A DNA stretch of 64,000 bases from Bradymonadia bacterium (lineage in GTDB: Bacteria > Myxococcota_A > Bradymonadia > UBA7976 > UBA1532): the NCBI GenBank assembly GCA_046290225.1, contig JBKAGE010000079.1, positions 216,861-280,860 of the forward strand, read 5' to 3'. Under the pieces are notes generated by a model. That model searched no databases and was not told the DNA's origin. It saw only the letters and a program-made list of their open reading frames with translations. Below, in pieces: positions 33,303 to 52,946 of the stretch. Positions within the stretch are counted from its first letter, which is position 1; each line of letters begins with the position of its first letter. Position numbers and translations under genes: made by a program.

Positions 33303-33521
33303 ATGGCCAAAGAAGAAGCCATTACGGTCGAGGGGACGGTCATCGAGCCTCTCCCCAACGCGATGTTCCGGGTCGAGCTCGAGAACGGTCACAAGATCCT
33401 GGCCCACGTCTCTGGGAAGATGCGCAAGTTCTTCATCCGCATCCTGCCCGGTGACAAGGTCACCGTCGAGGTGTCCCCCTACGATCTCACTCGCGGTCGG
33501 ATCACCTACCGGGCCCGTTGA
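33303..33521 (+). CDS. infA: Translation initiation factor IF-1
   Basis: [30 protein letters not shown]...SGKMR...[19 protein letters not shown]. Confidence 0.98.
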
Positions 33522-36500
33522 GCCTGAGCGAGCCCGCACCGCCCTTTGTCGATCTTCAGCCCCTCGGACGGGGGGCCATGGGGGTGGTGTTTTCAGGGCA
33601 GCACCCTCGCAGTGGTCGGGCGGTGGCCCTCAAGGTGCTCACCGACAAGGGTGCTTTCGATCCTCGCTATCAACGTGCCTTCCGTGAAGAGGTTCGTGCC
33701 TCAGCGGCGCTGGACCATCCCCGCATCGTCTCCACCTTCGACGTGGGACGTCTCGCGGCACCTCTGAAGTACGTCGACGACGGTTGGCAGGCGCTGTGCC
33801 CTGAGGGCAGCCCCTTCCTGGTGATGGAGCGGGTACACGGCGAGCCCCTCACCCGATGGCGAGGGCAAGTGCAGTGGGCACCGCTGAGGCACATCGTGCT
33901 CGCGCTGCTCGATGCCCTGGCCCACGCCCACGCCCGTGGGGTGATCCATCGCGATCTCAAGCCGTCGAACGTGCTGTGGTTCCCCTGTAAGGGGGCCTTC
34001 GATCTCAAGCTCACCGACTTCGGACTGGCCCACGCTCTCGATCGAGACGGCCGTTTATCGGGTGGCCTGGCTCGAGGAGGCACGCCGGCCTATATGTCAC
34101 CCGAGCAGATCGAAGGCCGATGGCGCGACTTCGGTCCATGGACTGATCTCTACGCACTCGGCTGCCTGATCCACGCTCTGGTCTCTGGCCACTCACCCTT
34201 CGCCCGGCCCACGGCGAAGGCCAGTCAGGAGGCTCACCGCACCCTGACTCCTCCGCCGCTCCTGCTCGACGAGGCACCGCCGGGATTCTCCGCCTGGGTT
34301 GATCGCTTGCTGTGTAAATCGCCAGAGGGACGGTTTCGATGTGCGGCTGATGCAGCCTGGGCCTTCGTCGGCCTCGACGAGCGCCCTTTCGAGGGCCCTG
34401 TGCCCTGGGTGGCCCCCCTGGGCATGGAGCAGGGGCCTGCACCGCTGGAGGAGCCTGCCAGCGAGCCGTCGACGGCATGGTACCCCTCAGGTGCGCAGGA
34501 GGTCTGGTTCGACGCCGTCACCGCCGTGGGCGCCAGCCCGCAACCCTCAGATGCCCCACCGATCCCTACAGACTGGCGCACCCCGGGAGTAGAGGACGGC
34601 CGTTGGGCGCCGCGCCCCCCTGGCATGGGCCTCGCCCTGTTTGATCAGAGATCCACCCCTCTTGTGGGCCGCGGTCCCCTGTGTGACGAGCTGTGGTCCA
34701 GCCTGAGGCTCGTCGACGCCTTCCGCGGCCCCCGAGGTGTGGTGCTGGAGGGCGCAGGTGGAGTGGGCAAGAGCACGCTGGCGCGCTGGCTGACCCTGAA
34801 GGCCTCTGCCTTGGGCGCCGCCACAGTGCTCAAGGCCACCCACAGCCAGAGCCTGGGGCCCTTTGACGGCCTGGGTCCGATGGTGGCCCGGGCCCACCAG
34901 TGCCTCGGCCTGAGCCGGGAGGCGCTGAAGGCACGCCTCGATGAAACCTTGAGCAAGTGGTCCATCGGCGGATCAGCGGAGGCCCTCACGGGGGTCATCG
35001 CCGGAGATTTGCCCGGCACACGGGGGGTGAGCCGGTTCGAGCGCCTCGCCGATCACCTCGGGCGCCTTGCCCGACAACGACCGCTCATCGTGTGGGTGGA
35101 CGATGCACAGTGGGGCCCCGAGGCGTTGTCCTTCGGGTTGCATCTTTTCGACCAGGCCGCTCGGGGCAGGCCCTTGCCGATCTTGATGGTGATCACCATC
35201 AACACCGATCGTCCGCCCTCGGGTCGAGCGGAGATCCTGCTCCGACGCTGGCGCCAGCGCCCCGAGGTGCAGCGCCGCCGCATCGACCCTTTGGAGGCCC
35301 CCTCGATGGGGGCACTGGTGACCGAGATCCTGGGGCTCTCGCCGCCCCTTGCTCAAGAGGTGATCCGTCGCACACGGGGCAACCCGCTCTTCGCGGTGCA
35401 GCTCGTGGGCGACTGGGTGCACCGTGCGCTCCTGGAGAGCGGCCCTGAGGGTTTTCGACGCACAGGCGAAGCGCCCGAGTCCCTGCCCGACGAGCTGCAC
35501 CTGCTCTGGCAGGACCGTCTCCGGTACGCCCTTCGGGTGCTCACCTTCGACGGGTGGTGGGTCATGGAGCGCGGCGCCATCCTGGGCCAGACGGTCGATC
35601 TCCGCGAGTGGGCTGCCGCCTGCGGCTTCGATCGTGGTCCCGCCCGTGAGCGCATGGATTTACTGCTCAACCGCCTCGCCGACGAGGGGTTGATGCTGCC
35701 TCAAGCAGAAGGCACCGAGGCGTGGCGCTTCGTGCACCCGATGCTGCAAGAGGCGTTGATACGGCACGCTCGGGAGTCGGGGCGTCTGGTGGCGCATCAT
35801 CTGGCCTGCGCCCAGATGCTCGAGGGCAGGAGAGTCCCCCTCGACCAGGGGCGCCGTGGAGAGCATCTGCTCGCCGCAGGTGAAGCTCACCAGGCTCTCA
35901 AGCCCCTGTATACCGCCGCCTGGGATCGCGCCATCGCTCGAGACTTCGAACGGGCTGAGATCTTTGCCCGGCGCTGGCGCGCTGCTGCGCGTCAGTCTGG
36001 CCTGAAGGCTGACGATCCGCGGCGGGGGCAGGGCGTGATCCTCGCGAGCCGTATCGCCCGGGGCCGAGGGCAAGGGCGCCGCAGCCGGTGGATGATCGAG
36101 GCTCTGGAGAAAGCGGCCCGGCGCTTCGGCTGGGGTGAGGTGCGAGCCCGGGCCCTCGTTGATCGCGCCTGGGCGCTGGAGAACGAAGGCCTCTGGGCAC
36201 AAGCGGCCGATCTACTCGACGAGGCTGCAGAGCTGGCTCACGACTTGGGATTGAGGGGTCTCGAGGCATCTACGCGACGGAACCTCGGGGCGATCCTCAT
36301 GCAACGCGCAGGGGCCGAAGAGGCCCGGCGACCCCTGCTCGCCGCGATGGATCTGCACCGTGGCGGTCGATGGCCTCATGGTGAGGCGTTGTGTCATCTC
36401 GAACTGGCACAGCTCGATCGTATGCACGGCGCGTTGAGCGAGGCTGCGGCGCATTGCAAGCAAGCACGGGCGATCTTCGAGCGATGCAACGCCCCCTGGG

Positions 36501-36979
36501 GTGTCGCCGCCGCTGACCTGGAGCAGGGCCGGGTGTGTCAGGCCCTGGGTGATCTGTCGGCTGCTGAATCTCTCATCGCCGGCGCCGTAGAACAGTATCG
36601 AGCCACCCAGAGCGAGGGCCGCCCTGTGGCGGAGCTGTCTCTGGCCTGGGTGCGCCTGGCCCAGGGGCACGTGGAGCAGGCCCGTACGATCTTCGATACG
36701 GTGGAGGGCCACTTCGCCAGGGCAGGGCGCCGTGGTCGGGCGTTGAGCGCCACCCTCGGTCGCCTCGCCGTGGGCCTCGGGGTGACCACCGAGCTGCATT
36801 GGGATCGGCTGCTCGAGCGCGTAGAGGTGGAGCTCGCCGCCCACCACACGCGGGAGATCGACCACTTGCTTCACATGCTGAGAGCGCTCGCTGATCGGTT
36901 GGGCACCGAGGAGCAAATCGAGGCCCTGGCCGCGTTGAGGCTTGAGCCTGACCACCTTCAGAGAGAGGAACGCCCATGA
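33518..36979 (+). CDS. Ser/Thr protein kinase + AAA ATPase + TPR protein
   Basis: [31 protein letters not shown]; Walker A GAGGVGKS, Walker B VWVDD, GNPLF; helical repeats at the C-terminus. Confidence 0.92.
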
Positions 36980-39199: not shown

Positions 39200-40375
39200 T
39201 CAGAGCAGGCTGCCCACCCAGAAGGCGCCCACCCAGGCACCCAGCGCCGAGCCGATCGTGGCCAACGTGGCCACCACCAGCACCCGTAAGAACGGGTTGC
39301 GGTAGAAGCCCTTCATCGTCTGCACATCTTGGGGAATCCGCTCGCAGTCTTCCACCGTGGGTTTTCGTAACCAGGCCTCAACCAAGCCCACCACCATACC
39401 TGCGCCCAGCGCCGGGTTGAGCGAGGTGATGGGAGAAGCGATGAAGGCCGTGAGGATGGACAAAGGCTTGCCCATACCCACTGCTGTGAGCAGCGCACAC
39501 ATGATGGAGTTGGGCAGGATCCAGGCGTAGAGCATCTGGCTCAGGCCCTCGCCCTCGTGCTTCTGGTAGCCGAAGTAGAAGGCGATCAAAATCAGCGCCG
39601 GGATGACCCACTTGAGGGCCTTCACCCACAAGCGAGTAGGCGGGATCACCGAGAGGGCCTCTCGATCGGCCCCCTTGCCGAAGTGAGCCACCATGCCTGG
39701 GACGTGGGCCGCCCCCACCACGGAGACCACCGTCTTACCAGGGGCGTCTTCCGTGGCCGACATCAGAAAGTGATCGCGCTCGTCGATGAGGGGCCGCTTC
39801 ACCCCAGGGATGCGTCGGGCGAACTCCGCCATCATCTCCCCGAGGGTGTCTTTGTCTTTCATCTTCTCGAGGGTCTCTTCGGTGAGCTCTTCGCCCTCAC
39901 CGAAGAATGACCCCATGAGCTCGCCGAGCACCTTGAAGCGATCAAGGAGCGACATGTTGTGCCAGGTGCGCTTGAGCGTTGCCTGGATGTTCCGATCGGC
40001 GAGGACCAACTCGGCATCGTGCTCCCTGGCTTTCTCGATGGCCGCGGTCATCTCGGCGCCGGGGTTCACCCCCAGCTTCTCGCCCATCTGCTTCTGGTAG
40101 GCAGAGAGGGCGAGGTTCGATAGCAAGAACAGCACCTTGCCCTGCTTGATGATCTGGAAGATGTCGAGCTTCCGCCAGCGATCGGGATCGTTGAGGGTGT
40201 CATAGCGGGTCTGACACAGCTCGACGCACACCGTGTCGGGCTGCAGCGTGTCGATGACGTGTTTGACCTCGTCGACGCTGCGCTGGCTGATGTGGGCGGT
40301 GCCCACGAGATAGAAAGTGCGGCCGTCACGCTCGAGGACGGTGACATTCTCGAAATCGGGGTTGGGGCTGTTCAT
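39200..40375 (-). CDS. TraB/PrgY (GumN) family membrane protein
   Basis: LVGTAHIS, VCVELC, PGAEM, LADR, LIDERD, VVGAAHVPG and C-terminal TM helices. Confidence 0.92.
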   Translation of the reverse strand: MNSPNPDFENVTVLERDGRTFYLVGTAHISQRSVDEVKHVIDTLQPDTVCVELCQTRYDTLNDPDRWRKLDIFQIIKQGKVLFLLSNLALSAYQKQMGEKLGVNPGAEMTAAIEKAREHDAELVLADRNIQATLKRTWHNMSLLDRFKVLGELMGSFFGEGEELTEETLEKMKDKDTLGEMMAEFARRIPGVKRPLIDERDHFLMSATEDAPGKTVVSVVGAAHVPGMVAHFGKGADREALSVIPPTRLWVKALKWVIPALILIAFYFGYQKHEGEGLSQMLYAWILPNSIMCALLTAVGMGKPLSILTAFIASPITSLNPALGAGMVVGLVEAWLRKPTVEDCERIPQDVQTMKGFYRNPFLRVLVVATLATIGSALGAWVGAFWVGSLL

Positions 40376-40508
40376 GCAGGTCGCTTCTGTGGCCAGATCG
40401 GGGGCTGGCAGGGTACATGACTCGATACCCAGCGGCAATGAGAGCCCCCATAAATCGCCGAAGCCCTTAGAGGTTCCAGGTTCTGGGCCTGTCACATCGG
40501 TGGGCGCC

Positions 40509-41975
40509 TCACCCGCCCGGGGCCGGGGTCATCTGAAGCAACTGCTCGAGGCTCTTCGGGTCTTGGGCCACCCGCATGGCCTCGTCGAGATCCACCATGC
40601 CCGTGGCCACCATCTCCGCCAGCGAGACGTCGAAGGGCAGCATGCCTTCCTGACGGCCTGTCTGTAGCTGGCTGACCATGAGGTGGGTCTTGCCCTCGCG
40701 GATCAGGTTCGAGATGGCGTAGTTCACCCGCATCATCTCCACCACCGGCAGCCGGCGCCGGCCGTCGGCAGAGGGCACCAGACGTTGAGTGATCACCGCT
40801 CGGAGGACCTCGGCGATCTGGGTGCGGGCCTGCCCCTGCTGTGACTCCGGGAAGGCATTCACCATGCGCTCCACGGCCTGGTAGGCGCTGCCGGAGTGCA
40901 GGGTGGAGAGCACGAGGTGGCCGGTCTCTGCCGCGGTGAGCGCCGCTGACATGGTGCTCAGATCACGCATTTCGCCGAGGAGGATGATGTCGGGGGCTTC
41001 GCGCAGCGCTGAGCGCAGGCCGTGGGCGTATGACTTCACGTGAATGCCCAGCTCGCGTTGCTGGATCAGGCTGCGCTTGCCCTTGAAGCGATACTCGATC
41101 GGATCTTCGAGGGTGATGATGTGCTTGGGGTAGCGCTGGTTGATGTGCTCTACCAGAGCCGCCAGCGTGGTGGACTTGCCGGAGCCCGTGGGGCCACAGA
41201 CCAGGATCAAGCCGTGGGGGAGCTCGGTGAGCACCGGCACGTCCCGGGGGATGTTGAGCCGCCTGAAGTCGGGCACCACGTCCCAGATCCAGCGAAAGAC
41301 CGCGGAGATGCCCCGGAGCTGCTTGAAGACGTTCACGCGGAAGCGGCAGGCCTTGCGCGTGATGCGCGAGTTGAACTCGAGGGCGAGATCGACGCTGCCG
41401 GTCTCGTCGAAGGTGGCCCTGCGCTCTGGAGTGAAGGCGTCTTTGAGCAGCTGCATCAAATCCTGCTCTTCGAAGATCACCTCGGGTACGGGGATCATCT
41501 TGCCCATGATGCGCAACGTCGTGGACTCACCAGCGGCGATCACCACGTCGGAGGCCCCTTGCTCTACGGATTGCTCGAGCAGTTGATGCAGCGAGATCCC
41601 CCGGCGGTCCGATACAGGCTTCGGGGTGGCCACCTTGGGGGGCGGCGTGGCGTTCCGGCTCTCCTTCGAAGGTCGGACCACCACCGACCAGCCCTCTCGG
41701 CTACGTTGAATCTGCACCGTGAAGCGACCCATGTGGGGCACGCGGTAGCTGACCTTGAGCTCACCGGTCTTCTTGAGCAGTTGCCATTGACGATCGTCGC
41801 CGAGCAGGCACTCCAGGACCGCTTGCAGATCGTCTGATTCCAGGGCGGGCTCGGAGAGCGGTCGGAACCGGTTGCCGATGAACAGGGCAGGGGGCTGGAG
41901 GGTTTGGAGCAGCAGCGAGGAGGCCTGCTGGTCCAGCATGAGGCGCATCAGATTGTGCAGTCGCTCAGGGTACAC
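40509..41975 (-). CDS. pilT: PilT/PilU-family type IV pilus ATPase with duplicated N-terminal domain
   Basis: GPTGSGKSTT, ITLEDPIE, LREAPD, GEMRD, AAETGHLV, AISNLIRE. Confidence 0.88.
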   Translation of the reverse strand: MYPERLHNLMRLMLDQQASSLLLQTLQPPALFIGNRFRPLSEPALESDDLQAVLECLLGDDRQWQLLKKTGELKVSYRVPHMGRFTVQIQRSREGWSVVVRPSKESRNATPPPKVATPKPVSDRRGISLHQLLEQSVEQGASDVVIAAGESTTLRIMGKMIPVPEVIFEEQDLMQLLKDAFTPERRATFDETGSVDLALEFNSRITRKACRFRVNVFKQLRGISAVFRWIWDVVPDFRRLNIPRDVPVLTELPHGLILVCGPTGSGKSTTLAALVEHINQRYPKHIITLEDPIEYRFKGKRSLIQQRELGIHVKSYAHGLRSALREAPDIILLGEMRDLSTMSAALTAAETGHLVLSTLHSGSAYQAVERMVNAFPESQQGQARTQIAEVLRAVITQRLVPSADGRRRLPVVEMMRVNYAISNLIREGKTHLMVSQLQTGRQEGMLPFDVSLAEMVATGMVDLDEAMRVAQDPKSLEQLLQMTPAPGG

Positions 41976-42060: not shown

Positions 42061-43236
42061 TCAGCCGCAGCCGCCACAGCCTCCACCACACGAAGAGCCG
42101 CAGGACGAGCCGCAGGACGAGCCACAGGAGGAGCCACAGGACGAGCCACAAGAAGACCCGCTGTCGCCAGCATCGAAATCGCTCCCTCCTGCGTCTACCG
42201 TATCCGACCAGCCGCCAGAAGACACTTCCTCAATGACGGGATCTGCAGCAGCGGGCTCGCTGATGGCGGCGTCTACGGCGAGATCATCGCCGTCGAAGCT
42301 CACGGCGTCGTTGCCCACCCAGCCATCATCAGCATGGGCCGTGGCTTGATCAGCGGTAAAGAGGGCCTCGCCTGCAGGGTCGACCACCATCACGTCCGGG
42401 GTGTGCAAGGCCGCCACATGGCTGTGCACCATGGCGTCGACGAGCACGTAGTTCATGTACATGTAGTAGGGGTCGCTGTAGTAGTAGAAGAAAGGGTCCG
42501 CGTAGGCCCCGGAGCGCGCCCTGCTGGGCACCGGGCGGTATGCGGGCTTCGGGGCGTCGTCGCTGAAATCGAGCTTCCTGAAGCGGCCGATCTCGGTGGC
42601 GTCGGGGCGGATCACCTTGATGCCCGCCTCCTGAGACTTCACCACTGCACCTGGCACTTTCTTGCGGATTGCCTCTCCGAGGGTGCTCGTGAACTCCTCG
42701 AGAATCAGTCGGTAACCCGAGAGGGCGCCATCTTCCTTGGCGAAGGCCTTGACCCGATCAGCGTAGGCCTTGGCCGACTCGCCGGCCTGAATGCGCAGGC
42801 TCTCCACGCGGGCTGAGCACTTGATCTCCATCTCCGCTTCACCGAGGAGCACCTCGTTCTGAATGCACACGTCGATGATGACGTGCAGGCCGTTCACCGA
42901 GTGATCCAGGGCGAGGTGCATTTCTTTGAAGGCCCGATCTGCGAGCTGAGTGTGCTCGGCGGCCTCCAGAATGAGGGGCAGATCGTTGTCGACGTCATCG
43001 GTGTCGAGGTAGATGACTTTCTTGTCAGCGAGCAGCGAGATCGCGTTGTTGCAACCCACAGCGGCAAAGGCGTTCGCCAACCCTTCGAGCAGGGCGAGGG
43101 CACCGATGGTGAGGGCCTCCTTGCCACTGCGCAGGTCGAGCTCGGCGCCGAAGAGCGAGCGTACCCACTCAATGGGGCCCTTTCGGCGGAGGGTCTCTTC
43201 ACTGGGCAGATCGACGGTGAGGGCAGCGTGCAGCAT
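42061..43236 (-). CDS. 391-aa protein with a C-terminal (GSSC)6-GGGC-GGCG tail; putative MNIO substrate
   Basis: The 8-Cys low-complexity tail resembles the ends of TIGR04222-type proteins; last gene of the DUF692 operon. Confidence 0.85.
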   Translation of the reverse strand: MLHAALTVDLPSEETLRRKGPIEWVRSLFGAELDLRSGKEALTIGALALLEGLANAFAAVGCNNAISLLADKKVIYLDTDDVDNDLPLILEAAEHTQLADRAFKEMHLALDHSVNGLHVIIDVCIQNEVLLGEAEMEIKCSARVESLRIQAGESAKAYADRVKAFAKEDGALSGYRLILEEFTSTLGEAIRKKVPGAVVKSQEAGIKVIRPDATEIGRFRKLDFSDDAPKPAYRPVPSRARSGAYADPFFYYYSDPYYMYMNYVLVDAMVHSHVAALHTPDVMVVDPAGEALFTADQATAHADDGWVGNDAVSFDGDDLAVDAAISEPAAADPVIEEVSSGGWSDTVDAGGSDFDAGDSGSSCGSSCGSSCGSSCGSSCGSSCGGGCGGCG

Positions 43237-43249
43237 CAGTTCTGACCTT

Positions 43250-43984
43250 TCATTTCAGGCTCTGTTGGCGTTGGCGAACGGTGGAATGGAGCGCAGCGAT
43301 TTGGTTGCCGGCGGTGCGCAGACGGCCCACGGCCACTGGATCTTCAGGGTTGGATCTGACGGCTCTGATCGCCGCGTCGAGCTCGCGGCGGAGTGGGTCG
43401 GCCTGTGACATCAGCTCAGTGGCCGATTCCGGCAGTCGCTCGACATCGATGATCAAGTCTGCGAACTGGCCTTCAGCCTCGTCGATGAGGGCCGTGGCAT
43501 CACGCTCATGGCCCAGTCGCCGCCGGCGATGCACGATCGCCAGCAGCCCGACGAGGGCCACAGCACCTCCAGACAGGCCGATGACCAGACTCATGGGTGT
43601 CTCTCCTGCTTTGTCCCGAGCCTTGGCGAGGGCGTCGAGGGCTCCGGTGATTTTGAGGGCGTAGTGCCCTGTGATCGAGCGCGCCTCGAGGAGCACGTCG
43701 GTGATGCGCTCAGGTTCGAGCCCCCAGCCTACGGCCCGCCAAGCCTCACCATTGAACACCAGCAGCAGGTGAGACTCGGCGTCGAGGCCGAGGGCTGGCC
43801 AGACTGCAGATGATGCGCTCAAGGGCGCCCCTCGGGCGACGACCAGCACATAGGCCCGCAGGCCACGTGATCTCAACGTCGAGAGGGCCTCGCGGATCAT
43901 GCGACGGCCCCCGGCCTTGAGCAGGCCCCCGCGATCGAGCAGGGGATCTGCACGGAGCGCTTCGGCGATCTGTGCTGGGGTCAT
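43250..43984 (-). CDS. Single-pass membrane protein, TPM-domain-like N-region plus helical C-region
   Basis: LLDRGGLL...AYVLVV...WPALGL...LLLVF pattern and a TM helix followed by RRRR; ATGA overlap with the DUF692 stop. Confidence 0.7.
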   Translation of the reverse strand: MTPAQIAEALRADPLLDRGGLLKAGGRRMIREALSTLRSRGLRAYVLVVARGAPLSASSAVWPALGLDAESHLLLVFNGEAWRAVGWGLEPERITDVLLEARSITGHYALKITGALDALAKARDKAGETPMSLVIGLSGGAVALVGLLAIVHRRRRLGHERDATALIDEAEGQFADLIIDVERLPESATELMSQADPLRRELDAAIRAVRSNPEDPVAVGRLRTAGNQIAALHSTVRQRQQSLK

Positions 43985-44853
43985 GGGCGGGCCTCGGCGT
44001 CTTCGTCTGCATGAAGCTGAAGCCACAGGCCCTCGGCTCTGGCGGCTTCGTCGATGAGTACGTCCACCGTCGGATAATGATCATCTCGCTCGATGATGAT
44101 GGTCATGAGGGGTGCACGACGGGCCAGGACCTTCAGCAAATCGTAGCTCTCGTCGGCGACTTCGACAGTGTGGCTGTCCACCCACCAGCCGTCGGCGCTC
44201 TGAAAGCCCCCTGCGAGGTGCACCTGCCACACCGCGTGCAGTGGGAAGCTGTGCAGATGGGCCTCGGCGTCGTAGCCGAAGTTGCGGCTGTTGTAGAGCA
44301 CGTTGGTGAGATCCATCAGCAGTCCACAGCCAGTCTGCTCCACCAATCGGTGGGCGAACTCGCCCTCGGAGAGGGTGGAGCCTGGGAGGACGAAGGGTTG
44401 GGCAGTGATCTCCAGAGCCACGGGGGCCTGAACGCGATCTTGAAGATGCTTCACCCGGTCGGAGACCACGCTCAGGCCCGTCTCGGTGAGGGGGACCGGT
44501 CCGAGGTGTCCGAGATCACGCCCTGGGGCGCTCACTGTGGTGGCAAGATGGTCGCTCACCAGACGGGGGGCACTGCGGCGAGCGAGGCGGGCCATGGCGT
44601 CGACCCGCTCGGCCAGCGCGGCGCCACCAGGGCCTTCGAGGGGGGTGCCCATACTCAGCCCCACGCCGTGAAACACCAGGGGGAACTGCTCAGCGAGGGC
44701 GTCGAGCGCATCAGGATCACCATGAAAGTGCTCGGGGATGATCTCCAGCACTTCACAGCCTGGCCCCGGCCCCCGATGAAGCAGCGGGCGCCGATATCGC
44801 CTGCGGAAGCCGACACCAGCACCGAGCCAGACCCCCGCGCCCTCACGCTTCAT
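43981..44853 (-). CDS. DUF692 / multinuclear non-heme iron oxidative enzyme (MNIO; MbnB/TglH/ChrH family)
   Basis: GVGFR, LEIIPEH, HGVGLSMG, VSDHL, LLMDLTNV, VHLAGG, VDSH, IIERD. Confidence 0.93.
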   Translation of the reverse strand: MKREGAGVWLGAGVGFRRRYRRPLLHRGPGPGCEVLEIIPEHFHGDPDALDALAEQFPLVFHGVGLSMGTPLEGPGGAALAERVDAMARLARRSAPRLVSDHLATTVSAPGRDLGHLGPVPLTETGLSVVSDRVKHLQDRVQAPVALEITAQPFVLPGSTLSEGEFAHRLVEQTGCGLLMDLTNVLYNSRNFGYDAEAHLHSFPLHAVWQVHLAGGFQSADGWWVDSHTVEVADESYDLLKVLARRAPLMTIIIERDDHYPTVDVLIDEAARAEGLWLQLHADEDAEARP

Positions 44854-45457
44854 GCCGGCCTCCGAGCGATTGCCACTGCACACGACCGCCGAGGCAGCGG
44901 AAGGCCGTGCGTACAGGCTGAGGATCCACGGGGAGCTCGCCCGATCTCAACGCAGTGACGAGCAGATCTGCGCGATGATCACAGGTAAACGTGCGGGTCG
45001 CGCCGTCCTCGATGCTCGCTGCGACATAGAGCTCGTAGACCAGGACGTCGGGGGCATAGGGGGCCACGGGACCATCTACGGCGATGATGGCGCGCAGGTG
45101 ATCTTTGAGATGCGCCAGCGCCCGTATCCCCTCGGCGATGCCCGGGCTCTGAATCAGATCTCCGGGTGGAGCAGGGTGTTCGTCGAGCCAGCGGCGATAG
45201 ACCTCTACGAGATCAGGGGCGAGTTTGAGGGTGAGCGGGATCGCCCGAGACAGCTCGAGGGCCCGCTTGGCCACGAGAGACTGAGCATATCGTTCGAGAT
45301 CGACGAAGGGCAGCTCGACGAGGGGCGCAGCCCCAGGCATCCACGGCGCCAGGGCCTCTCTCGGGTGAGTGCGAAAGCGGCGGCGGAGCGGGCCGTCTGT
45401 GGCCAGTTCGACCCATGCTGCCTGAAACTGGATGTAGTGGGAGGTGTCGGCGCTCAC
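44843..45457 (-). CDS. Putative MNIO partner protein (DUF2063/RRE-like)
   Basis: Overlaps the DUF692 start; the YAQSLVAKR...AIPLT...YE helical pattern resembles MNIO partner proteins. The family call is inference. Confidence 0.65.
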   Translation of the reverse strand: MSADTSHYIQFQAAWVELATDGPLRRRFRTHPREALAPWMPGAAPLVELPFVDLERYAQSLVAKRALELSRAIPLTLKLAPDLVEVYRRWLDEHPAPPGDLIQSPGIAEGIRALAHLKDHLRAIIAVDGPVAPYAPDVLVYELYVAASIEDGATRTFTCDHRADLLVTALRSGELPVDPQPVRTAFRCLGGRVQWQSLGGRHEA

Positions 45458-45534: not shown

Positions 45535-46746
45535 CTAGACCGCGTTGATTTGCTCCGCCCAGCCGAGAGACTCCTGATACATCTCCGGCAGGCGTTTCTC
45601 CTGGAGGCCGAGGCGGTTGCTCACAGCACAGGCCTTGTCCCATTCGCCCTCGGCATAGTGCTGGCAGAGCGCCAGGGCATGACCCATGGGGTTGTTGCGG
45701 AAGACCAGCGCGTCGTGCACGTCCTGGGCGAGGCCCAGGCTGCCGATGAGCTCGTCCATGGGTCGATTCACCATGGCGTCCATCACGGAGAACAGCCCCA
45801 CGAGGAACAAGTCGAAGGTTCTGGGCTTGAGGCTGCTGCTCTCGGCGATGAGCTCGCACATCCGGGCCCGCTGCAGGGCGGTGAGGACCAGCTCTGGTGG
45901 CTTGTCCTCGCCGATGCCGGTGAGGGCCACCAGCGAGGCCCATTTCTTCAGGGGCTGATGCCCCAGCAAGACCAGACCCTGGCGGATCGAAGAGACGCGC
46001 TGTCGCAAGCCGAAGGCTGCAGAGTTCAGGTATTTGAGCAGCTTCACCGAGAGCGAGGGCTCGAGGCGGATGATCTCCGCCACCTGATTGAAGTTGATGT
46101 CGGGCTTGTTGAGCACGCTGAGCAGCTTGAGGTAGTTCCCCTTGAAGGCGGGGATCGACTGCCGGGAAATCATCTCCGGGCGGCAGAAGAAGTACCCTTG
46201 GAACATCGAGTAGCCTGCCTGGTAGGCCTCTCGAAAGTCATCGACGGTCTCCACCTTCTCTGCGAGCAGAGTGATCTTCTGCCGTTGAAGCTGCCGTGCG
46301 ATGCGCACTCGATCTCGCCCCTGGGTGGTGAGGAAGTCGATCTTGATGATGTCCGCGAGCTCGATGAAGGGCTTGAGCGACGGTCGGTAGACGAAGTCGT
46401 CCAGGGCGATCTTGTAGCCCGCCTGCTTGAGCCCCTTGATGGCCCTGAGCAGCTCAGGATCCGGCTCGACGTCTTCGAGGATCTCCACCACGGTGTTCGC
46501 TGGGGGAAGCATCTCGATCATGCCATCGACCAGAATGCGGCGCGTGGTGTTGATGAAGGCCCGTCGACCGTTGGTGACACCATCCTCGAACACGTGCAGC
46601 TGGTCGCTGATGATCCGCGAGCAGGCGATGTCGGGATCCTGACTCAAATCGAAGAAATTCTCAGGACCCGATCTGAACAGCAGCTCGTACGCGACGACGC
46701 TGCGTTTACGGTCGAAAATCGGTTGTCTGGCGACGAACACTTCCAC
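45535..46746 (-). CDS. EAL-HDOD domain c-di-GMP protein (YuxH/CdgJ-like)
   Basis: VARQPI, YELLFR, IALDDF, AEKVET, QGYFF, LLKYLNS, GLFS. Confidence 0.92.
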   Translation of the reverse strand: MEVFVARQPIFDRKRSVVAYELLFRSGPENFFDLSQDPDIACSRIISDQLHVFEDGVTNGRRAFINTTRRILVDGMIEMLPPANTVVEILEDVEPDPELLRAIKGLKQAGYKIALDDFVYRPSLKPFIELADIIKIDFLTTQGRDRVRIARQLQRQKITLLAEKVETVDDFREAYQAGYSMFQGYFFCRPEMISRQSIPAFKGNYLKLLSVLNKPDINFNQVAEIIRLEPSLSVKLLKYLNSAAFGLRQRVSSIRQGLVLLGHQPLKKWASLVALTGIGEDKPPELVLTALQRARMCELIAESSSLKPRTFDLFLVGLFSVMDAMVNRPMDELIGSLGLAQDVHDALVFRNNPMGHALALCQHYAEGEWDKACAVSNRLGLQEKRLPEMYQESLGWAEQINAV

Positions 46747-46831: not shown

Positions 46832-48220
46832 TTACGTGTTCAGATGTGACACGAATGCGATGAGCATGAGGTGGGCCGTGGCGGGCATTTGATCGAGGGC
46901 GTGCAGGGCCTCCGGTCGCCACGACGGGCCCAAGGTGGCAAGGTCGGCGCCAAGGGCGCTCGCCTGAGGGGCGACGTAGACCAGGCGGCCTGCGCCGAGG
47001 GCCTGAAGCGGGCCCATCAGCTCAGCACCAAAGGGTGATCTCATCCCGTGAATCACCACCTTGTCGAATCGCTCGCCCTTGCTGAGCAGTCGACGGATCG
47101 TCCGGGCACCGTCGCCCACTCGGAACACCAGCCTCGAAGGGTCAAGGCCGCACGCCGCGCCATTGCGCTGAGCACTCAGGATGGCCGCGCGGGTGTGATC
47201 CACCCCCACCCAGTGTCGGGCCTGAGTCGCCAGGGCCACACTGTGCGTGCCCACCCCGCACCCGATCTCCAACACGCGATCAGTGGGGGCAAGGTCGAGC
47301 CCCGTGCGTACGATGTCGAGCAGCGCTCGAGTGCTGCCCGGGCTCTGAGGCGTCCAGGCGAGGGGGGCTGCTTCGAGGGTCTGGCCGCCGGGGCCCTCGA
47401 AGTAGAGCGTCTCGGGCCCTCTCAAGTGCTCGGGGGCGCGGAGCAGTCCTCCACCTCGGCGAGGGAGCACATCGAGCCATATGCCCGGGAGATCCGTCTC
47501 GCCCTCGAACAGGCGATGGACCGGCTCATCCGCGGAGGGTGGCCGGCTCAACGCGAAGATGAGGCGTCCGGGCCCGAGGCCTGTGTGCTCGGCGTGCACA
47601 GCCTTGACGAGCCCGGTGTCCAGTCGGGGATCGTAGGCGGTGAGCCCCAGAGCCTCGATGGCTCGCCCTGCTCGGGCGATCAGCGCGCGACAGTCTGTTG
47701 TGTGGGCAGGGCACTCGCTCAGCGGAATCAACGCCCCGCCAGGGTGGGGCACCATCCCCAGGACCACTTTGCCCTTGGGTGTGCGCAAGGCCCGCGCCAC
47801 GGCTCTGCTGCGATAGCCCGCAGCGTCGATGGGCCGATGTGTGTTGAGAGAGGGCCACTGGGTGTCCGGGCATCGGCTCTCGAGTCGCCTCAGGGCCTGT
47901 TGGGCTTTGAAGCCGAATGCCCGGTCCGCATGGAGGTGCCGGGTGACGCAGCCAGGGCAGGTCTGGGCACGCTCACATTGAGGATCACGATGCGTCACAG
48001 CCCGATGGCGCCAGCGGTGCACGTGGCCGAGGCATCCACCACCTGTGGGGTAAACCGCGATATCGACGACATCGCCTACGTCGGTGAGGGGGATCTCGAT
48101 GAGGGCGCCGTCGAAGGGGTCGAGCCAGGGCGCTCGGGGCCAGCGGCCATGAATGCGGCCGAGACCATGGCCTCGAGGGCTCAGGGCCTCAATGGTGATC
48201 TCGGTGTAGGCGGGGAGGAT
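46832..48220 (-). CDS. RlmD/TrmA-like RNA methyltransferase homolog, degenerate; start uncertain
   Basis: In-frame TRAM-like segment upstream of GTG 48022, CxxxxxCPGC...C, YRSR and SAM motif LEIGCGVG; catalytic motifs altered. Confidence 0.75.
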   Translation of the reverse strand: MLPAYTEITIEALSPRGHGLGRIHGRWPRAPWLDPFDGALIEIPLTDVGDVVDIAVYPTGGGCLGHVHRWRHRAVTHRDPQCERAQTCPGCVTRHLHADRAFGFKAQQALRRLESRCPDTQWPSLNTHRPIDAAGYRSRAVARALRTPKGKVVLGMVPHPGGALIPLSECPAHTTDCRALIARAGRAIEALGLTAYDPRLDTGLVKAVHAEHTGLGPGRLIFALSRPPSADEPVHRLFEGETDLPGIWLDVLPRRGGGLLRAPEHLRGPETLYFEGPGGQTLEAAPLAWTPQSPGSTRALLDIVRTGLDLAPTDRVLEIGCGVGTHSVALATQARHWVGVDHTRAAILSAQRNGAACGLDPSRLVFRVGDGARTIRRLLSKGERFDKVVIHGMRSPFGAELMGPLQALGAGRLVYVAPQASALGADLATLGPSWRPEALHALDQMPATAHLMLIAFVSHLNT

Positions 48221-48232
48221 GGCGGTGGGTGA

Positions 48233-50341
48233 TCAGGGGACCGAGTTGTAGAAGCGATCGCGGGCCACGACGCGGCGCACGTTCTGAGCAGGGATCCACT
48301 CGATGCCCACCACGTGCCAGAAGTTCCCGGTGACTTGCATCTCTCGGGAGCCTTCCCACTCGAGGACCCCGCCGAGGAAGATGCGCATGGTCACGAGGCT
48401 GGCACCCAGCTGTGCGCCACCGAAGATCTCCGAGCGGTAGTACAACACACCCACCTCGTAGAGGCCGCCGAGCAGGCTGGTGTCCTCGGGGCGGTCGACG
48501 CTGATGTTCTCGGGGCCGGCGCCGTTGGTGTCGTCGATGTCCAGGGTGCAGTCGTCGGCAGGATCACCCAGCTGACCCCAGTCGGGGTTGGTGTTGGCGA
48601 AGTAGCAGTCGCCGGGCTGGATGTTCCAGCCCAGGTTCTGGGGGTAGAGCATGTGGATGTCGATGTCGGTGCCGACGTTGTCGGTCTCGTTGTCATCGGC
48701 GGGGGTGGTCCAGCTCATCTGGGCGAGGATGCCGCCGTCGGGGGTGGCGGTGATGTTGATGGTGGCCACGGGCTCGGGGCAGATGTCGGAAGGCGCCGAC
48801 AGGCCCTGCTCGTCGGTGACGCGCAGCTCGATGACGTAGTCGCCGGCGAGGTCGACGAAGAACAGCGCCTCGGGGGTGGCGGGATCGTCAGCGGGGCCAC
48901 CATCGGCAGGACGGGCCACGTTGCTGAACCGCTCCACGGGCTGGGAGGTGGAGTCCATGGGGCGCTCGATCACCGTCCACTCGTAGCGCACGGGGCGGCC
49001 ACCGGCGGAGTCCTCGTCGATGGAGGGGCCGCCGTTGAGGGTGATGATGTCGAGGGGCAGCACCGCGAACTCGTCCTGCTGCACCTGGGGCACAGGGCAG
49101 ACGTTCTGCAGGCCACGACCGGAGAGGGGCACCTCGAGGGTGGGCTGGAAGCCGTCGTTGCTCTCGATGATGATCGTGCCGTCGTACACCTCTTCAGCAT
49201 CAGGGCTGAAGGTGACGGTGAGCAGGCGGCTCGGGGGATCCTGGTCAGGCGTGCGGGCGGGGAGGGGGGCGCTGGTGATGTCGGCGACGTCGGCCTCGCT
49301 CAAGGTGAAGGCGGCGTCGGTGTCGTCGGAGAGCCGGATGCTGGAGACGTCGAGGGGCTCACCGCCGCAGCTGGCGATGACCAGGGACTTCTCGTTGTCG
49401 GCGTCGACGAGGCCAGCGCCGAAGGCGAGGCCGTCGGCGGGCACCACCTCGATGCAGGGGGTGGCGCCGTTGGCCGTCAGCTCCAGGGTGCTGATGGGGC
49501 TGATGGGATCATTGGTCTGGATGGCCAGCTCACCGGAGTCGGAGCCCTCGGCAGGGGGCGCGTAGGTCACCTGAATCTCGAAAGAGGACTGCGGGGCCAG
49601 GCCTTCCTGGCCGTCGCCGTCGGGATCCGCGAGCAGCATGGCGTTGTTGATGGGGTCCTCGCCGCGGATCTGCACCGAGTAGTCGGCGCTGCCGGCGAGG
49701 TTCATGGCGTTGAAGAACAACACCTCGGTGCCCACGTTGTTCACCGTGGCCGTCATGGTCTTGGTGGCGTTGGCGGCGACACGCTCGAAGTCGAGGACCC
49801 GGGGGCTGATGCGCAGCTCGGGGCCCGAGGCGGCGTGCACGATGGGCAAGGCCACCTCGCGGTTGGCCGGATCGTTGGTGTTGATCACCAAAGTGCCTGG
49901 ATCAGTGCCCTCGTCGAGGGGGGCGTAGTTCAGGTACAGGAACACCGTCTGCTCAGGCTCGATGACGATGGGGCCGTCCTGGCGCTGGGCGTTGCCGCGA
50001 TCGACGAGGGCGAAGCGCGCGTTGGCCTCGTCGGTGTCGTAGCGCCACGTGAGCTCGTACTCGTCGCTGGGCAGGTTGCTCACCGAGGTGATGGCGAGCT
50101 GAGCGTTGCCCACGTTGATCACCTCGACCACCTGGGTGTTGTTCTGCCCCATGGCCACCGAAGTGTAGTTGAAGCTGTCGGGCCGAAGCTCGATCTCAGG
50201 TGTGGCACCACCCTCGAGGCTGTTGTCTTCACAAGCAGTGAGGCCACAGCTCAAGGCCACCACGAGCGCGGTGAGGCAAGTGCTCGTCAGAAATGTACGT
50301 GTGGAGCGGGTGCAGCCCATAAGTCGGCTCCTCATTGGCAT
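48233..50341 (-). CDS. Surface lipoprotein with tandem choice-of-anchor-D/ASH Ig-like domains, a PKD-like domain and a YfaP-like C-domain
   Basis: Lipobox LTAC, repeated NVG...I(N/Q/E)(T/S)ND segments, DIDIH...LDIDD..G.GPENI. Confidence 0.8.
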   Translation of the reverse strand: MPMRSRLMGCTRSTRTFLTSTCLTALVVALSCGLTACEDNSLEGGATPEIELRPDSFNYTSVAMGQNNTQVVEVINVGNAQLAITSVSNLPSDEYELTWRYDTDEANARFALVDRGNAQRQDGPIVIEPEQTVFLYLNYAPLDEGTDPGTLVINTNDPANREVALPIVHAASGPELRISPRVLDFERVAANATKTMTATVNNVGTEVLFFNAMNLAGSADYSVQIRGEDPINNAMLLADPDGDGQEGLAPQSSFEIQVTYAPPAEGSDSGELAIQTNDPISPISTLELTANGATPCIEVVPADGLAFGAGLVDADNEKSLVIASCGGEPLDVSSIRLSDDTDAAFTLSEADVADITSAPLPARTPDQDPPSRLLTVTFSPDAEEVYDGTIIIESNDGFQPTLEVPLSGRGLQNVCPVPQVQQDEFAVLPLDIITLNGGPSIDEDSAGGRPVRYEWTVIERPMDSTSQPVERFSNVARPADGGPADDPATPEALFFVDLAGDYVIELRVTDEQGLSAPSDICPEPVATINITATPDGGILAQMSWTTPADDNETDNVGTDIDIHMLYPQNLGWNIQPGDCYFANTNPDWGQLGDPADDCTLDIDDTNGAGPENISVDRPEDTSLLGGLYEVGVLYYRSEIFGGAQLGASLVTMRIFLGGVLEWEGSREMQVTGNFWHVVGIEWIPAQNVRRVVARDRFYNSVP

Positions 50342-50495
50342 AGAGCGGGGTGTCCGGGGCCCAGGATGCGGGGCACAGTAAAGTAGCGTGTACGTCCACA
50401 TCCGACAATTCGATGCCGCGTAGCGTGGACGATTTAAGCCGTCTACATCAAGTGTCACACATTGCACCGGTCGATTTTCAGTGTCGGCAGGGGCT

Positions 50496-52946
50496 TCAGC
50501 CGCCCTTGAGGGCATCTGCAAGGCCCCGTCGTTCGACGGCGAGGGCCGCACACGCCCGCGCTGCGCCAGAGAGTCGATGGCAGGCTCGGCTGTGAGCGTC
50601 GCCGGGGAGCGCAGCGCACCACGCTTCGATGCGGGCGGCGTCGTCGGGGGCGCACAGGCCCGCTGCGAGGGTCAGGATCGGAGCAGGGCCCGACGAGGCA
50701 GAGGGCGCGCCTTCGAGGTGTCCGCGCAGCTGGCTCGCCGTCTGTGGCCGGCGCGCCAGTTGAGCCCAAAGGGCCTCCCGCTCTTCGTCGAGCAGATCGC
50801 CAGACTGAGAGAAACGCAGTGTCGCTTCGATGAGTTCCGGCGAGGCTACATGACCCAGGGCCATGAGCAGACCCGAACGGCTGTGGGCATCTGCAGCGGC
50901 TTCGAAGGCCGCGACGAGGGCTCGATGCTGGTCTGCAGTGGCGCCGAGGGTGCACAGCGCGATGCTGCGGACGTCTGCTTCGGAGAGCCCACCAGCCCCC
51001 GTCGTCACCTCGGCGAGCTGAGGCGAGATGCCGGACCAGCCTTCAGGGCAAAGCTCTGCTGGTGTCAGCGCCTTGAGGTCCACCAGCGCCGTGCTCAGCG
51101 CGAGGTGAGGTCGGCCCTGTTGTCGCCGGGCCACCACAGAGGGGGCCACATGACGTCGGGCCCAGTGTGCCAGCTGAGTGGCCATGGCGGGATCAGGCGT
51201 GAGGCGGGCAAGCAGATGCACACCATCAGCGACCCCTTCGAGGACCAGCGGGTGGTGCTTGGCCGAGAGTGCCGCGAGGGCCTCGAGGAACTGGTGGCCG
51301 TCGAGGTGCCCATGACGCAGCTGGCCGATGAGGGCGCCGGGCATGGAGATACGTTGGGACACGCTCAGCTGATCCCAGTGGCGATTGATCACATCGAGGG
51401 TGAGGGCCGGCGCCATTTGCCAGTGATGGTTGTGCAGCGTGTCAGGGGCCAGCCACGTGGGGCATCGAGGAAGCTCTATGGTGTGCGTCTCCGCCGACCA
51501 GCGCAGGCAATGCTCCGTCGATGCACCATCGAGGCCAACGTGCATACAGAGGGGCAATCCATTGGGGATCTCAGCCCCAGAGGCGGGAGAGAGCTGGACC
51601 TGGGCAGGGGCAGAGGCTCGGGCGCCACATCGCACTGCATAGTTGACACGGGGTGGCTCAGCGGCGCTGACGAGGCCGCCGAGCAGCCCGGAGAGCGGTT
51701 GACGGGTCGACGTGTCGATGGCGGCAAACCATTGCGCCACGTCGCCCCCACGGTGGGCGAGCCATTGGCTGCCGAGCGTCTCGAAGCGTTGCTTGCCCAC
51801 GAGATGGCGAACCGTGTCGAGGATGGACCACCAGCGCACTGGAGGGTGGGGGTCGAGAGGACCGAGGCCCATGGCCATGCTTGCCCGCTGACGACGCAGC
51901 AGGTGAGGCTCGTGTGCCGGGTGCAATACGTCGAGCACTGTGTCGGCGTGATCGTGGATGAGGGTGCCATCGAGGGTGTCAGCTTCAGGGCTGATGCCTC
52001 GTTGGTGACAATATGCGTCGCTGAGCTGATCTCCAGCGTGAAGCGGGTTGGTGAGGCGCTCATCGTCGAGGGCGGCGATCACCAATCCCTGGGCGGTGCT
52101 TGTGGGCAGGCCCCAGCCAGGTACGAGGACCACCTGTAAAGGGGCTTCTGTCGCCTCGAGAGGCAGAGACTGCACCTTTTTGCTCCAGGTGGTGAGCTGA
52201 CGCGCCAGCGCTGCAGTTTCGGCCTTGACCGAGCCTGGAGCAAAGAGCACGACCCCCCCACCACAGGTCACAGATTCAAAGGGGCCAGCGACCCAGCGGA
52301 TGTCGCTGGGGATCGCCGCGGGTTGCTGCAGCAGCGTGATCCCAGGCTCAGGGCTGCTGTGTGGTGCACCTGCACCGATGACCCGCCAGCCCTCGGGGTG
52401 CTTCACCTTCAAGGTCAGAGGTGCCTCGAAGCCGTGCACGTCGAACCCTGGTGTGTAATGGCGGCCGAGGCTCGACGCCAGGCCTGACCAGATCCCGCCG
52501 AGGGCGGATGTACGCCAGAGTCCGGGGGCCCCGAGACCAAAGTCCGCCGTGTACTCCACCGTCAGCTTCACCGGACCAGGGGGGAGGGGCGTGTCGAACC
52601 AGAGCGCGAGCCCGTCATGAGGCATGCTCTGAAAGCGCCCTGTCCGCTGCCCCCATTCACCCTCAGCCTGCAACCGCGTCACCTGCAGTGTGCCCCCGTG
52701 CATCGGGATCAGCTGTGTGGGTTGCTTGAGATGAAGCGAGAACTCAGCGCGACCCTCGAGAGGGCCCTGCTCGGCGAGCTGGAGCGTCAGGGCCCACGCC
52801 TGAGGGCGTAGATCCTCAGACGGGCGCTCGGCGCCATCGAACTCGGGGATGGCCGGCGGCGCAGGTGGATCAGGTGGAGGGGGCGGAGGGCGCTCCATAC
52901 AACCTGCGAGCAGAGTACAGAGACAGAACAGCCTCGAGGGGGACAT
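50496..52946 (-). CDS. M1 aminopeptidase-like lipoprotein lacking catalytic motifs
   Basis: Lipobox LAGC; APN-like N-domain (LRP..W.LTL, GLWR, PGFD) and a helical ERAP1_C-like C-terminus; no GAMEN or HEXXH. Confidence 0.7.
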   Translation of the reverse strand: MSPSRLFCLCTLLAGCMERPPPPPPDPPAPPAIPEFDGAERPSEDLRPQAWALTLQLAEQGPLEGRAEFSLHLKQPTQLIPMHGGTLQVTRLQAEGEWGQRTGRFQSMPHDGLALWFDTPLPPGPVKLTVEYTADFGLGAPGLWRTSALGGIWSGLASSLGRHYTPGFDVHGFEAPLTLKVKHPEGWRVIGAGAPHSSPEPGITLLQQPAAIPSDIRWVAGPFESVTCGGGVVLFAPGSVKAETAALARQLTTWSKKVQSLPLEATEAPLQVVLVPGWGLPTSTAQGLVIAALDDERLTNPLHAGDQLSDAYCHQRGISPEADTLDGTLIHDHADTVLDVLHPAHEPHLLRRQRASMAMGLGPLDPHPPVRWWSILDTVRHLVGKQRFETLGSQWLAHRGGDVAQWFAAIDTSTRQPLSGLLGGLVSAAEPPRVNYAVRCGARASAPAQVQLSPASGAEIPNGLPLCMHVGLDGASTEHCLRWSAETHTIELPRCPTWLAPDTLHNHHWQMAPALTLDVINRHWDQLSVSQRISMPGALIGQLRHGHLDGHQFLEALAALSAKHHPLVLEGVADGVHLLARLTPDPAMATQLAHWARRHVAPSVVARRQQGRPHLALSTALVDLKALTPAELCPEGWSGISPQLAEVTTGAGGLSEADVRSIALCTLGATADQHRALVAAFEAAADAHSRSGLLMALGHVASPELIEATLRFSQSGDLLDEEREALWAQLARRPQTASQLRGHLEGAPSASSGPAPILTLAAGLCAPDDAARIEAWCAALPGDAHSRACHRLSGAARACAALAVERRGLADALKGG

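Follow-up and report, generated by a model that had tools for sequence, protein, structure and literature searches.

In a 64,000-nt stretch of DNA from a Bradymonadia bacterium (assembly GCA_046290225.1, contig JBKAGE010000079.1; hereafter the window), four genes encode an MNIO (DUF692) enzyme, a predicted partner protein, a membrane protein that we call G3, and a protein with a C-terminal Cys-repeat tail, which we call the carrier. Across relatives of the carrier, tail type and enzyme type change together, and comparison of these sequences suggests that the tail itself gets chemically modified. The operon is probably a protein-modification cassette in which the carrier tail serves as the MNIO substrate. 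Its features are as follows:

45457-44843, minus strand: predicted MNIO partner protein, PME-type 2; 204 aa, GTG start
44853-43981, minus strand: MNIO/DUF692 enzyme; 290 aa, PF05114
43984-43250, minus strand: membrane protein G3; 244 aa, single-pass
43236-42061, minus strand: carrier protein; 391 aa, without known family
42064..42159, minus strand: Cys-repeat tail (GSSC)6-GGGC-GGCG, read from the sequence; proposed substrate

The gene order is partner, MNIO, G3, carrier. In the sequence, partner and MNIO overlap by 11 nt, MNIO and G3 share an ATGA overlap, and 13 nt separate G3 from the carrier; coordinates, overlaps and gap are all as given in an earlier note on this DNA, which had proposed the tail as the enzyme's substrate. 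That note had made conservation of the four-gene neighbourhood a test of its proposal, and the neighbourhood is indeed kept. Sixty-four loci were fetched, 33 of which (near-duplicates included) contain a carrier start and at least 1,700 nt upstream; the MNIO gene lies upstream of the carrier gene in 30 of these 33, in the same order, and the other three consist of two truncated carriers and one carrier cut by a contig end. Close homologues occur mostly in Myxococcota-type metagenome-assembled genomes (Polyangiaceae, Kofleriaceae, Myxococcales, Nannocystaceae and Bradymonadia), plus one from Acidobacteriota. G3 is absent from two loci (L003 and L024).

Around the MNIO-type loci we found no fifth conserved gene, protease or exporter. 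Nor did 132 short open reading frames (ORFs) flanking 23 loci include a conserved precursor; there were seven weak pairwise matches, not inspected individually, none of them with a short ORF of the window. The earlier note's impression that the operon lacks a short precursor, a protease and an exporter therefore extends to related loci, and a conserved separate precursor, which it had named as grounds for rejection, did not appear. Since there is no conserved short precursor and G3 lacks Cys, the tail is the only conserved Cys-rich candidate. Several loci depart from the common pattern: L045:4921 has an in-frame stop ahead of an intact tail, L052 (6956-8878) and L050 hold split or truncated carriers without the operon, L033 has a truncated MNIO and no partner, and the tail is shortened at L024. 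Ion-channel genes (TrkA_N/Ion_trans_2 or other) adjoin the operon or carrier at L037, L043, L054, L025, L096, L055, L003 and L185, with domains confirmed using Pfam for L037, L043, L096, L003 and L185 only.

The carrier is a single-copy protein of 391 aa, and the sequence confirms its reported C-terminus, a tail with eight Cys. The tail is encoded with mixed synonymous codons, so that the underlying DNA does not repeat perfectly. Scanning all six frames of the genome for C-terminal Cys/Gly/Ser repeats returned three of 170,342 frames: the carrier and two short frames (41 and 48 aa). We identified 56 close carrier homologues and counted 51 as full-length (at least 340 aa; the tailless 431-aa P0058 was excluded by hand); 48 of the 51 have at least two [ST]C[GS] motifs within their last 60 residues. 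In 30 close homologues, with 3-9 Cys per tail, Ser stands before 163 of the 185 tail Cys, and Gly comes after 103 of them.

Tail and enzyme across the carrier family

With a profile search at E 0.001 we retrieved 370 carrier representatives; the best 150 of these include tails of the Ser-Cys-Gly and Asp-Cys types, acidic tails free of Cys, and carriers with no tail. Whole-genome searches detected the family in 35 of the 401 genomes sampled from the phylum, in 59 of 401 from one class, and in 2 of 301 and 2 of 112 genomes in two further samples. We placed 127 non-redundant carrier domains, tails excluded, on a quick maximum-likelihood tree with SH-aLRT support only. Clade (a) has 42 rows including the window carrier, and 31 of them have an MNIO in cis. 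Eight more are Cys-tailed; seven of these lie near a contig end and the eighth (L006) has partner and MNIO elsewhere in its genome. The remaining three (L107, L111 and L114) lack both Cys tail and operon, and their genomes lack this partner family.

Beside clade (a) stand L096 and L047. L096 and its relative L055 carry short Ser-Cys-Gly tails, and each has an SbtM-family radical SAM gene immediately after the carrier gene: 6 nt downstream at L096 (TIGR04082, 464.6 bits; cut-off 350) and 6-7 nt downstream at L055 (572-2133; partial, 141 bits). Within L096:4968-8726, which spans the carrier and the gene after it, the SbtM-like frame (842 aa) continues unstopped into a second radical SAM domain, across a linker that looks like a non-coding frame.

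Clade (c) comprises 20 rows from one family (f16) of the same phylum, in which 23 of 29 sampled genomes have a carrier (loci L069-L090 and L098-L108). G3 lies upstream of the carrier in all 21 loci, and the tails take the form (DCSS/DCSW/DCSF)n: every one of 184 Cys follows Asp, and 131 of the 184 have Asp at +3. A PapB/QhpD-like radical SAM gene lies directly downstream of the carrier in 16 of the 21 loci and elsewhere in the genome in the other five; the four encoded proteins that were scanned score 89.8-129.1 bits (PapB cut-off 340), and for all four the top model is PapB or the QHNDH maturase. We regard clade (c) as a candidate system, present in nearly the whole family, for forming several Cys-Asp thioethers along the tail of a protein. 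Genome searches covering 80 of 92 carrier-bearing genomes found the PapB-like subfamily in 11, all from f16 and all with Asp-Cys tails. The same searches found strong matches to the partner family in 11 genomes, every one with a Cys-tailed carrier.

The large clades (d) are Cys-free and have none of the searched maturase genes. Clades (e), which are distant or small and short-tailed, have Ser-Cys-Gly tails without an MNIO; at one of their loci (L174:1570-3786) the carrier is followed by an ACGX/SbtM-related radical SAM gene that scores below cut-off. Eight distant Ser-Cys-Gly carriers (L176-L182 and L185) are directly preceded by a small protein of 145-175 aa with an invariant TPS..D..WHE..L.TR.Y...C...FG...HH.PGG pattern and a C-terminal CGxC. 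No Pfam or NCBIfam family matched this protein, which is possibly a metal-binding protein or a new tail-modifying enzyme. We presumed a likeness to GRDP/DUF1399, which was not confirmed in a search whose control also gave no match. Bacteroidota carriers, represented in the context data by three plasmid records, all have tails without Cys and lack the partner genes searched for; four Cys-tailed distant carriers (P0194, P0196, P0199 and P0204) fall outside the context counts. At L188:5178-6887 (G911) partner and MNIO are fused in one ORF with no precursor beside it, and a short-tailed carrier lies on another contig. An HD-domain gene follows short-tailed carriers at L131, L135 and L137, two of which also have a nucleotidyltransferase-like gene; this may be plain synteny of closely related genomes. 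An approximately unbiased test of MNIO-type and radical SAM-type carriers as one clade gave p 0.116, which leaves a single joining of G3 to the carrier and two separate joinings both compatible with the data.

To gauge the correspondence, we scored 98 of the 127 rows, leaving out 29 with short flanks or with open or ambiguous tails and assigning five labels by hand. Forty-four carriers have a Cys tail and a maturase in cis, 41 are Cys-free without one, 13 have a Cys tail without one, and none is Cys-free with one. Here, "without" refers to the four profiles searched; other enzyme classes were covered by Pfam on 72 neighbouring ORFs only. The earlier note had named, as a reason to abandon its proposal, homologues occurring mostly without DUF692. 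Distant homologues do mostly lack it, but 41 carriers are Cys-free and 22 lie beside another class of Cys-modifying enzyme, with 13 Cys-tailed carriers lacking a searched maturase.

By analogy with known enzymes, the chemical match of tail and enzyme persuades us more than the count. PapB forms Cys-Asp thioethers and accepts Cys-Xn-Asp with n = 0-6 (PMC9413430; this and the other sources cited are drawn on in part). Given that PapB links Cys to Asp and that the Asp-Cys tail occurs exactly with a PapB-like gene, the tail is favoured as the substrate. Similarly, SbtM converts Cys to thiooxazole (PMC9204691), bufferin MNIOs make thiooxazole (PMC11626156), and captophorin MNIOs do likewise (PMC12668002); because SbtM and bufferin-type MNIOs make the same product and both enzyme types stand beside Ser-Cys-Gly tails of sister carriers, the tail is again favoured. 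Thus, the earlier proposal of the tail as substrate draws partial support, from conserved gene order, the missing precursor, the fold of the partner and the tracking of tail type with enzyme type.

Several observations weigh against this reading. Of the 57 Cys-tailed carriers that were scored, 13 show neither an MNIO nor a partner nor a searched radical SAM gene in the available flank; 12 of the 13 are of the Ser-Cys-Gly type, and among these the partner family is found in one genome (G911) and SbtM above cut-off in none. Other MNIOs are present in all 12 of the tested Ser-Cys-Gly genomes without an adjacent radical SAM gene. The table omits two MNIO loci with broken tails (L045 and L024), and L107, L111 and L114 are on long branches, such that their placement in clade (a) is unsure. 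Well-supported branches provide only four independent contrasts, because kin share labels; none is in the wrong direction, and the median sign-test p of 0.25 is not significant. The SbtM link consists of two related loci (L096 and L055). At L096 the SbtM-like protein covers model positions 196-516 only, the first 195 being missing, and one of the three tail Cys follows Gly, the motif reported for SbtM; SbtM-like genes at two further loci (L197 and L198, in G061 and G718) show no gene for a Cys-tailed protein upstream. Finally, the MNIO reaches none of the NCBIfam subfamily cut-offs, and its family membership therefore does not reveal its chemistry.

The four proteins and their genomic setting

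The DUF692 assignment of the earlier note is secure: the enzyme scores 209.3 bits against PF05114 (cut-off 25), and its metal-binding residues are intact. H62, H102, E148, D181, N184, H212, D226, H228, E255 and D257 are invariant among the 30 operon MNIOs, and the conserved positions align with those of TglH and MbnB; there are also sequence matches to 3bww. We take H62, H102, E148, D181, H212, H228 and E255 to be iron ligands. The best NCBIfam models are BufB (177.9 bits; cut-off 310) and HvfB (147.7 bits; cut-off 360), followed by ApyH at 95 and ChrH and MbnB at 59 bits each. The genome encodes six MNIOs, the operon enzyme and those of five further loci (within L115-L120). Of these loci, L116 contains an ORF, upstream of the MNIO, in which KSCSGEKGCSG units (EGKCG-like) recur, L117 has a bufferin-like precursor and a sigma-factor-like gene pair, and L119 encodes an extended MNIO of 426 aa.

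The partner has a helical N-domain and a small beta C-domain. Searches of Pfam and NCBIfam gave no match for it, and DUF2063 was not matched at E 0.1 by any of 20 members of its family. Its AlphaFold model (mean predicted local distance difference test score, pLDDT, 94.9) ranks TglI (8hci), NGO1945 (3dee) and MbnC (7dz9) first to third among 48,161 chains, with Z 9.3 (root-mean-square deviation 4.2, 184 aligned), Z 7.4 and Z 5.8, respectively. Foldseek also places TglI and NGO1945 on top, yet at E 0.04-0.4, and profile searches of Protein Data Bank sequences with partner and G3 gave no match, or transmembrane-helix noise. PME-type 2 partners are defined by structural relatedness to NGO1945/TglI without the DUF2063 signature, and have been linked to precursors without a signal peptide (PMC12452194). 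By its model, the partner here is of this type. Hence, the "putative partner" of the earlier note has the fold of known MNIO partners, and lacks sequence-level support.

G3 consists of an N-terminal alpha/beta domain, one transmembrane helix (~133-151; hydropathy peak 2.5) followed by RRRR, and a helical C-domain. The window G3 has no match in a Pfam/NCBIfam scan; four of 35 G3 members match PF04536 (TPM) weakly (best E 1.5e-4), and structural look-alikes in the Atlas are DUF5129/TPM proteins (score 0.87, TM 0.47). The N-terminal domain probably belongs to the TPM clan. Of the "TPM-like membrane protein" described earlier, the membrane part stands and the TPM likeness is weakly supported. By eye, 35 MNIO-type G3 sequences open directly on the domain with no visible signal peptide; six aligned radical SAM-type sequences have a hydrophobic N-terminus. 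This difference leaves the topology of G3 unsettled. The carrier is directly downstream of G3 at MNIO-type and radical SAM-type loci alike, and the two proteins are not homologous.

The carrier is composed of a folded domain (~residues 1-325), a disordered acidic linker and the tail. Across 30 carriers the maximum 19-residue hydropathy is 0.79-1.73, indicating no transmembrane helix or signal peptide, in agreement with the earlier description of an apparently soluble protein. The carrier has no Pfam or NCBIfam match (E 0.1), TIGR04222 included; a search of the whole genome for TIGR04222 was also negative, as was its control. The structural model of the carrier (pLDDT 78.9, under 50 across most of 334-391) is globular alpha/beta, has no Foldseek match, and resembles only unnamed clusters in the Atlas. 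The best structural match (Z 8.1 over 94 residues, with residues past ~205 barely covered) is to the helix-grip/KA1-type fold; this fold being common, we dropped the likeness as a clue to function.

The source genome is 8.58 Mb and 99% complete, and the G+C content of the four-gene block equals that of its surroundings. An EAL/HDOD gene (45535-46746, minus) lies 77 nt upstream and a gene for a PilT-family ATPase with an extra N-terminal domain (40509-41975, minus) 85 nt downstream, both on the operon strand; neither recurs at related loci. A scan of the operon DNA for promoters gave no sigma-70-like match, and terminator-like sites occurred at chance level. The window also encodes a TraB-family protein (39200-40495, minus), an RlmD-like methyltransferase (46832-48022, minus), a Ser/Thr kinase-ATPase-like protein judged by eye (33518-36979, plus), and a 772-aa lipoprotein-like ORF with repeated segments of Ig-like look (48233-50551, minus).

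Proposed mechanism and rival explanations

We propose that partner and MNIO would form a complex that engages the carrier in the cytoplasm, where the MNIO would oxidise successive Ser-Cys-Gly units of the disordered tail. The oxidised Cys would most likely be 5-thiooxazoles, with a loss of 4 Da for each Cys and an absorbance near 305 nm; by analogy, we rate thiooxazole as quite possible, a little short of probable. The modified tail, kept on the folded protein, would bind a soft metal, probably Cu, at multiple sites; again by analogy, metal binding by an attached tail is a more tentative suggestion. Single-pass G3 would bind the carrier and probably dock it at the inner membrane. More broadly, and with similar caution, the carrier may be a general scaffold: a membrane-docked folded cytoplasmic domain with a plug-in tail for which evolution has found new matches among at least three unrelated types of Cys-modifying enzyme (MNIO, SbtM-type radical SAM and PapB-type radical SAM) and possibly a fourth, the small protein with the PSxxVDxAWH...HHDP pattern that accompanies the distant Ser-Cys-Gly clade. 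The modified tail would then stay on the protein to bind metal or to signal.

Instead of binding metal, the modified tail may serve in structure or recognition, a rival to be taken seriously because the neighbourhood holds no conserved gene for metal homeostasis and thioether formation would consume thiols. This explanation shares the tail as substrate and differs in product and purpose: heterocycles, thioether rings or a TglH/ChrH-type rearrangement would make a rigid, protease-resistant recognition tag for a membrane complex. Cys-Asp thioethers in the radical SAM-type clade would leave no free ligands, TglI is the closest fold to the partner, neither copper nor metal-stress genes are conserved nearby, and other clades have Cys-free acidic Gly/Asp tails at the same position. 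Nonetheless, the MNIO is nearer to BufB and HvfB than to ApyH, ChrH and MbnB, and the alternative enzyme beside Ser-Cys-Gly tails belongs to the SbtM thiooxazole family. Overall, we consider this explanation rather unlikely.

An alternative is that the tail acts unmodified, as a metallothionein-like or disulfide-forming Cys cluster, and that MNIO and partner work on something else, be it a precursor from another locus, a residue other than Cys in G3 or the carrier, or a small molecule. The 13 Cys-tailed carriers without a searched maturase would fit, as would the frequency of MNIOs (six in this genome, and present in 18 of 21 genomes tested), the location of partner and MNIO apart from the carrier in three genomes (G402, G772 and G911), and the absence of MNIO genes from a third of TIGR04222-bearing genomes (PMC12452194). 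However, every genome with a strong partner match has a Cys-tailed carrier, there is no short Cys-rich precursor beside the partner and MNIO genes that lie apart from the carrier, and other MNIO loci of this genome (L116 and L117) have candidate precursors of their own. Moreover, Asp-Cys repeats exactly where a Cys-Asp cross-linking enzyme type appears are hard to explain unless the tail is the substrate. We give this alternative little credence. It is similarly improbable that the system makes a RiPP (a peptide made by the ribosome and modified after translation) with a large folded leader, from which a protease encoded elsewhere frees a short modified peptide: a long acidic linker does set the disordered tail apart from the folded domain, and M12-type metallopeptidases match just over cut-off in two of five genes scanned upstream of radical SAM-type G3 (L099 and L106), but no protease or exporter is conserved at MNIO-type loci, neither the length nor the sequence of the linker is conserved, and the 325-residue domain is kept in many tailless relatives and therefore has a role of its own.

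Comparison with known systems

The closest precedent for a whole protein as the substrate of an MNIO is a set of TIGR04222 membrane proteins whose tails are made of Ser, Gly and Cys and whose partners are of PME-type 2, proposed in silico to be bona fide protein substrates (Antoine et al., 2025; PMC12452194). The clusters resemble the operon described here in having a large protein with an unstructured C-terminal Ser/Gly region containing Cys, no Sec signal, and an MNIO with a partner lacking DUF2063; in both cases the association with the enzyme is loose across the wider family (PMC12452194). They differ in that TIGR04222 proteins have several transmembrane segments, whereas the carrier has neither a TIGR04222 match nor a transmembrane helix, the membrane part being a separate gene; hence, the carrier tail is probably cytoplasmic and TIGR04222 tails periplasmic. 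The carrier gene also lies two genes after the MNIO, whereas the published survey took precursors from the gene before it, as for the adjamnio-I precursors of 122-293 aa (PMC12452194). In the portions of that article available, the account of TIGR04222-MNIO clusters includes no swap to radical SAM enzymes.

Bufferin and captophorin systems (BufABC, HvfABC and FonABC) likewise combine an MNIO and partner with repeated Cys motifs and predicted 5-thiooxazoles and Cu binding, and supply the nearest NCBIfam models. By contrast, they have small Sec-exported precursors, DUF2063 (PME-type 1) partners and Lys-Cys/Cys-Lys motifs, often with DoxX, none of which holds here (PMC11626156; PMC12668002); the gene before the MNIO encodes the partner rather than a short Cys precursor with a Sec signal. 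TglHI (pearlin) and MbnBC (methanobactin) share the partner fold and the aligned MNIO metal-ligand positions, but act on short precursors, at one or two Cys; our partner is 8-10% identical to theirs, and there are no PEARL or export genes. RiPP-type Cys chemistry on proteins is also known for radical SAM enzymes, with cross-linking shown for QhpD on QhpC and CrpC on CrpA (PMC13692751). QhpD, CrpC, PapB and SbtM represent the families that replace the MNIO beside sister carriers, and in the available portions of these sources none is reported to act on a repeat tail that looks detachable and belongs to a shared scaffold.

Our literature search, with subscription papers and the supplementary alignments of PMC12452194 outside it, found nothing on the carrier family, the tail motifs or the enzyme swap. 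The earlier note's idea of RiPP chemistry used as a protein modification gains comparative support from the evidence for the tail as substrate, and is already in print for TIGR04222 proteins; what appears new, as judged from this literature search, is the carrier family and its enzyme swap. If the proposal is true, RiPP chemistry extends to the modification of cytoplasmic proteins, and the enzymes are ones that place several heterocycles or thioether rings on a portable C-terminal tag. Whether MNIOs modify whole proteins is a stated question (PMC12452194). Tail swaps could address substrate identity, recognition through the folded domain or the tail, and the convergence of MNIO and SbtM on thiooxazole, with sister carriers that combine another tail with another enzyme, and tailless carriers, as natural controls. 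Given that the candidates in print span the membrane several times and are hard to express and analyse, the carrier system, with its soluble substrate, short regular repeat and compact four-gene operon, is a better test bed.

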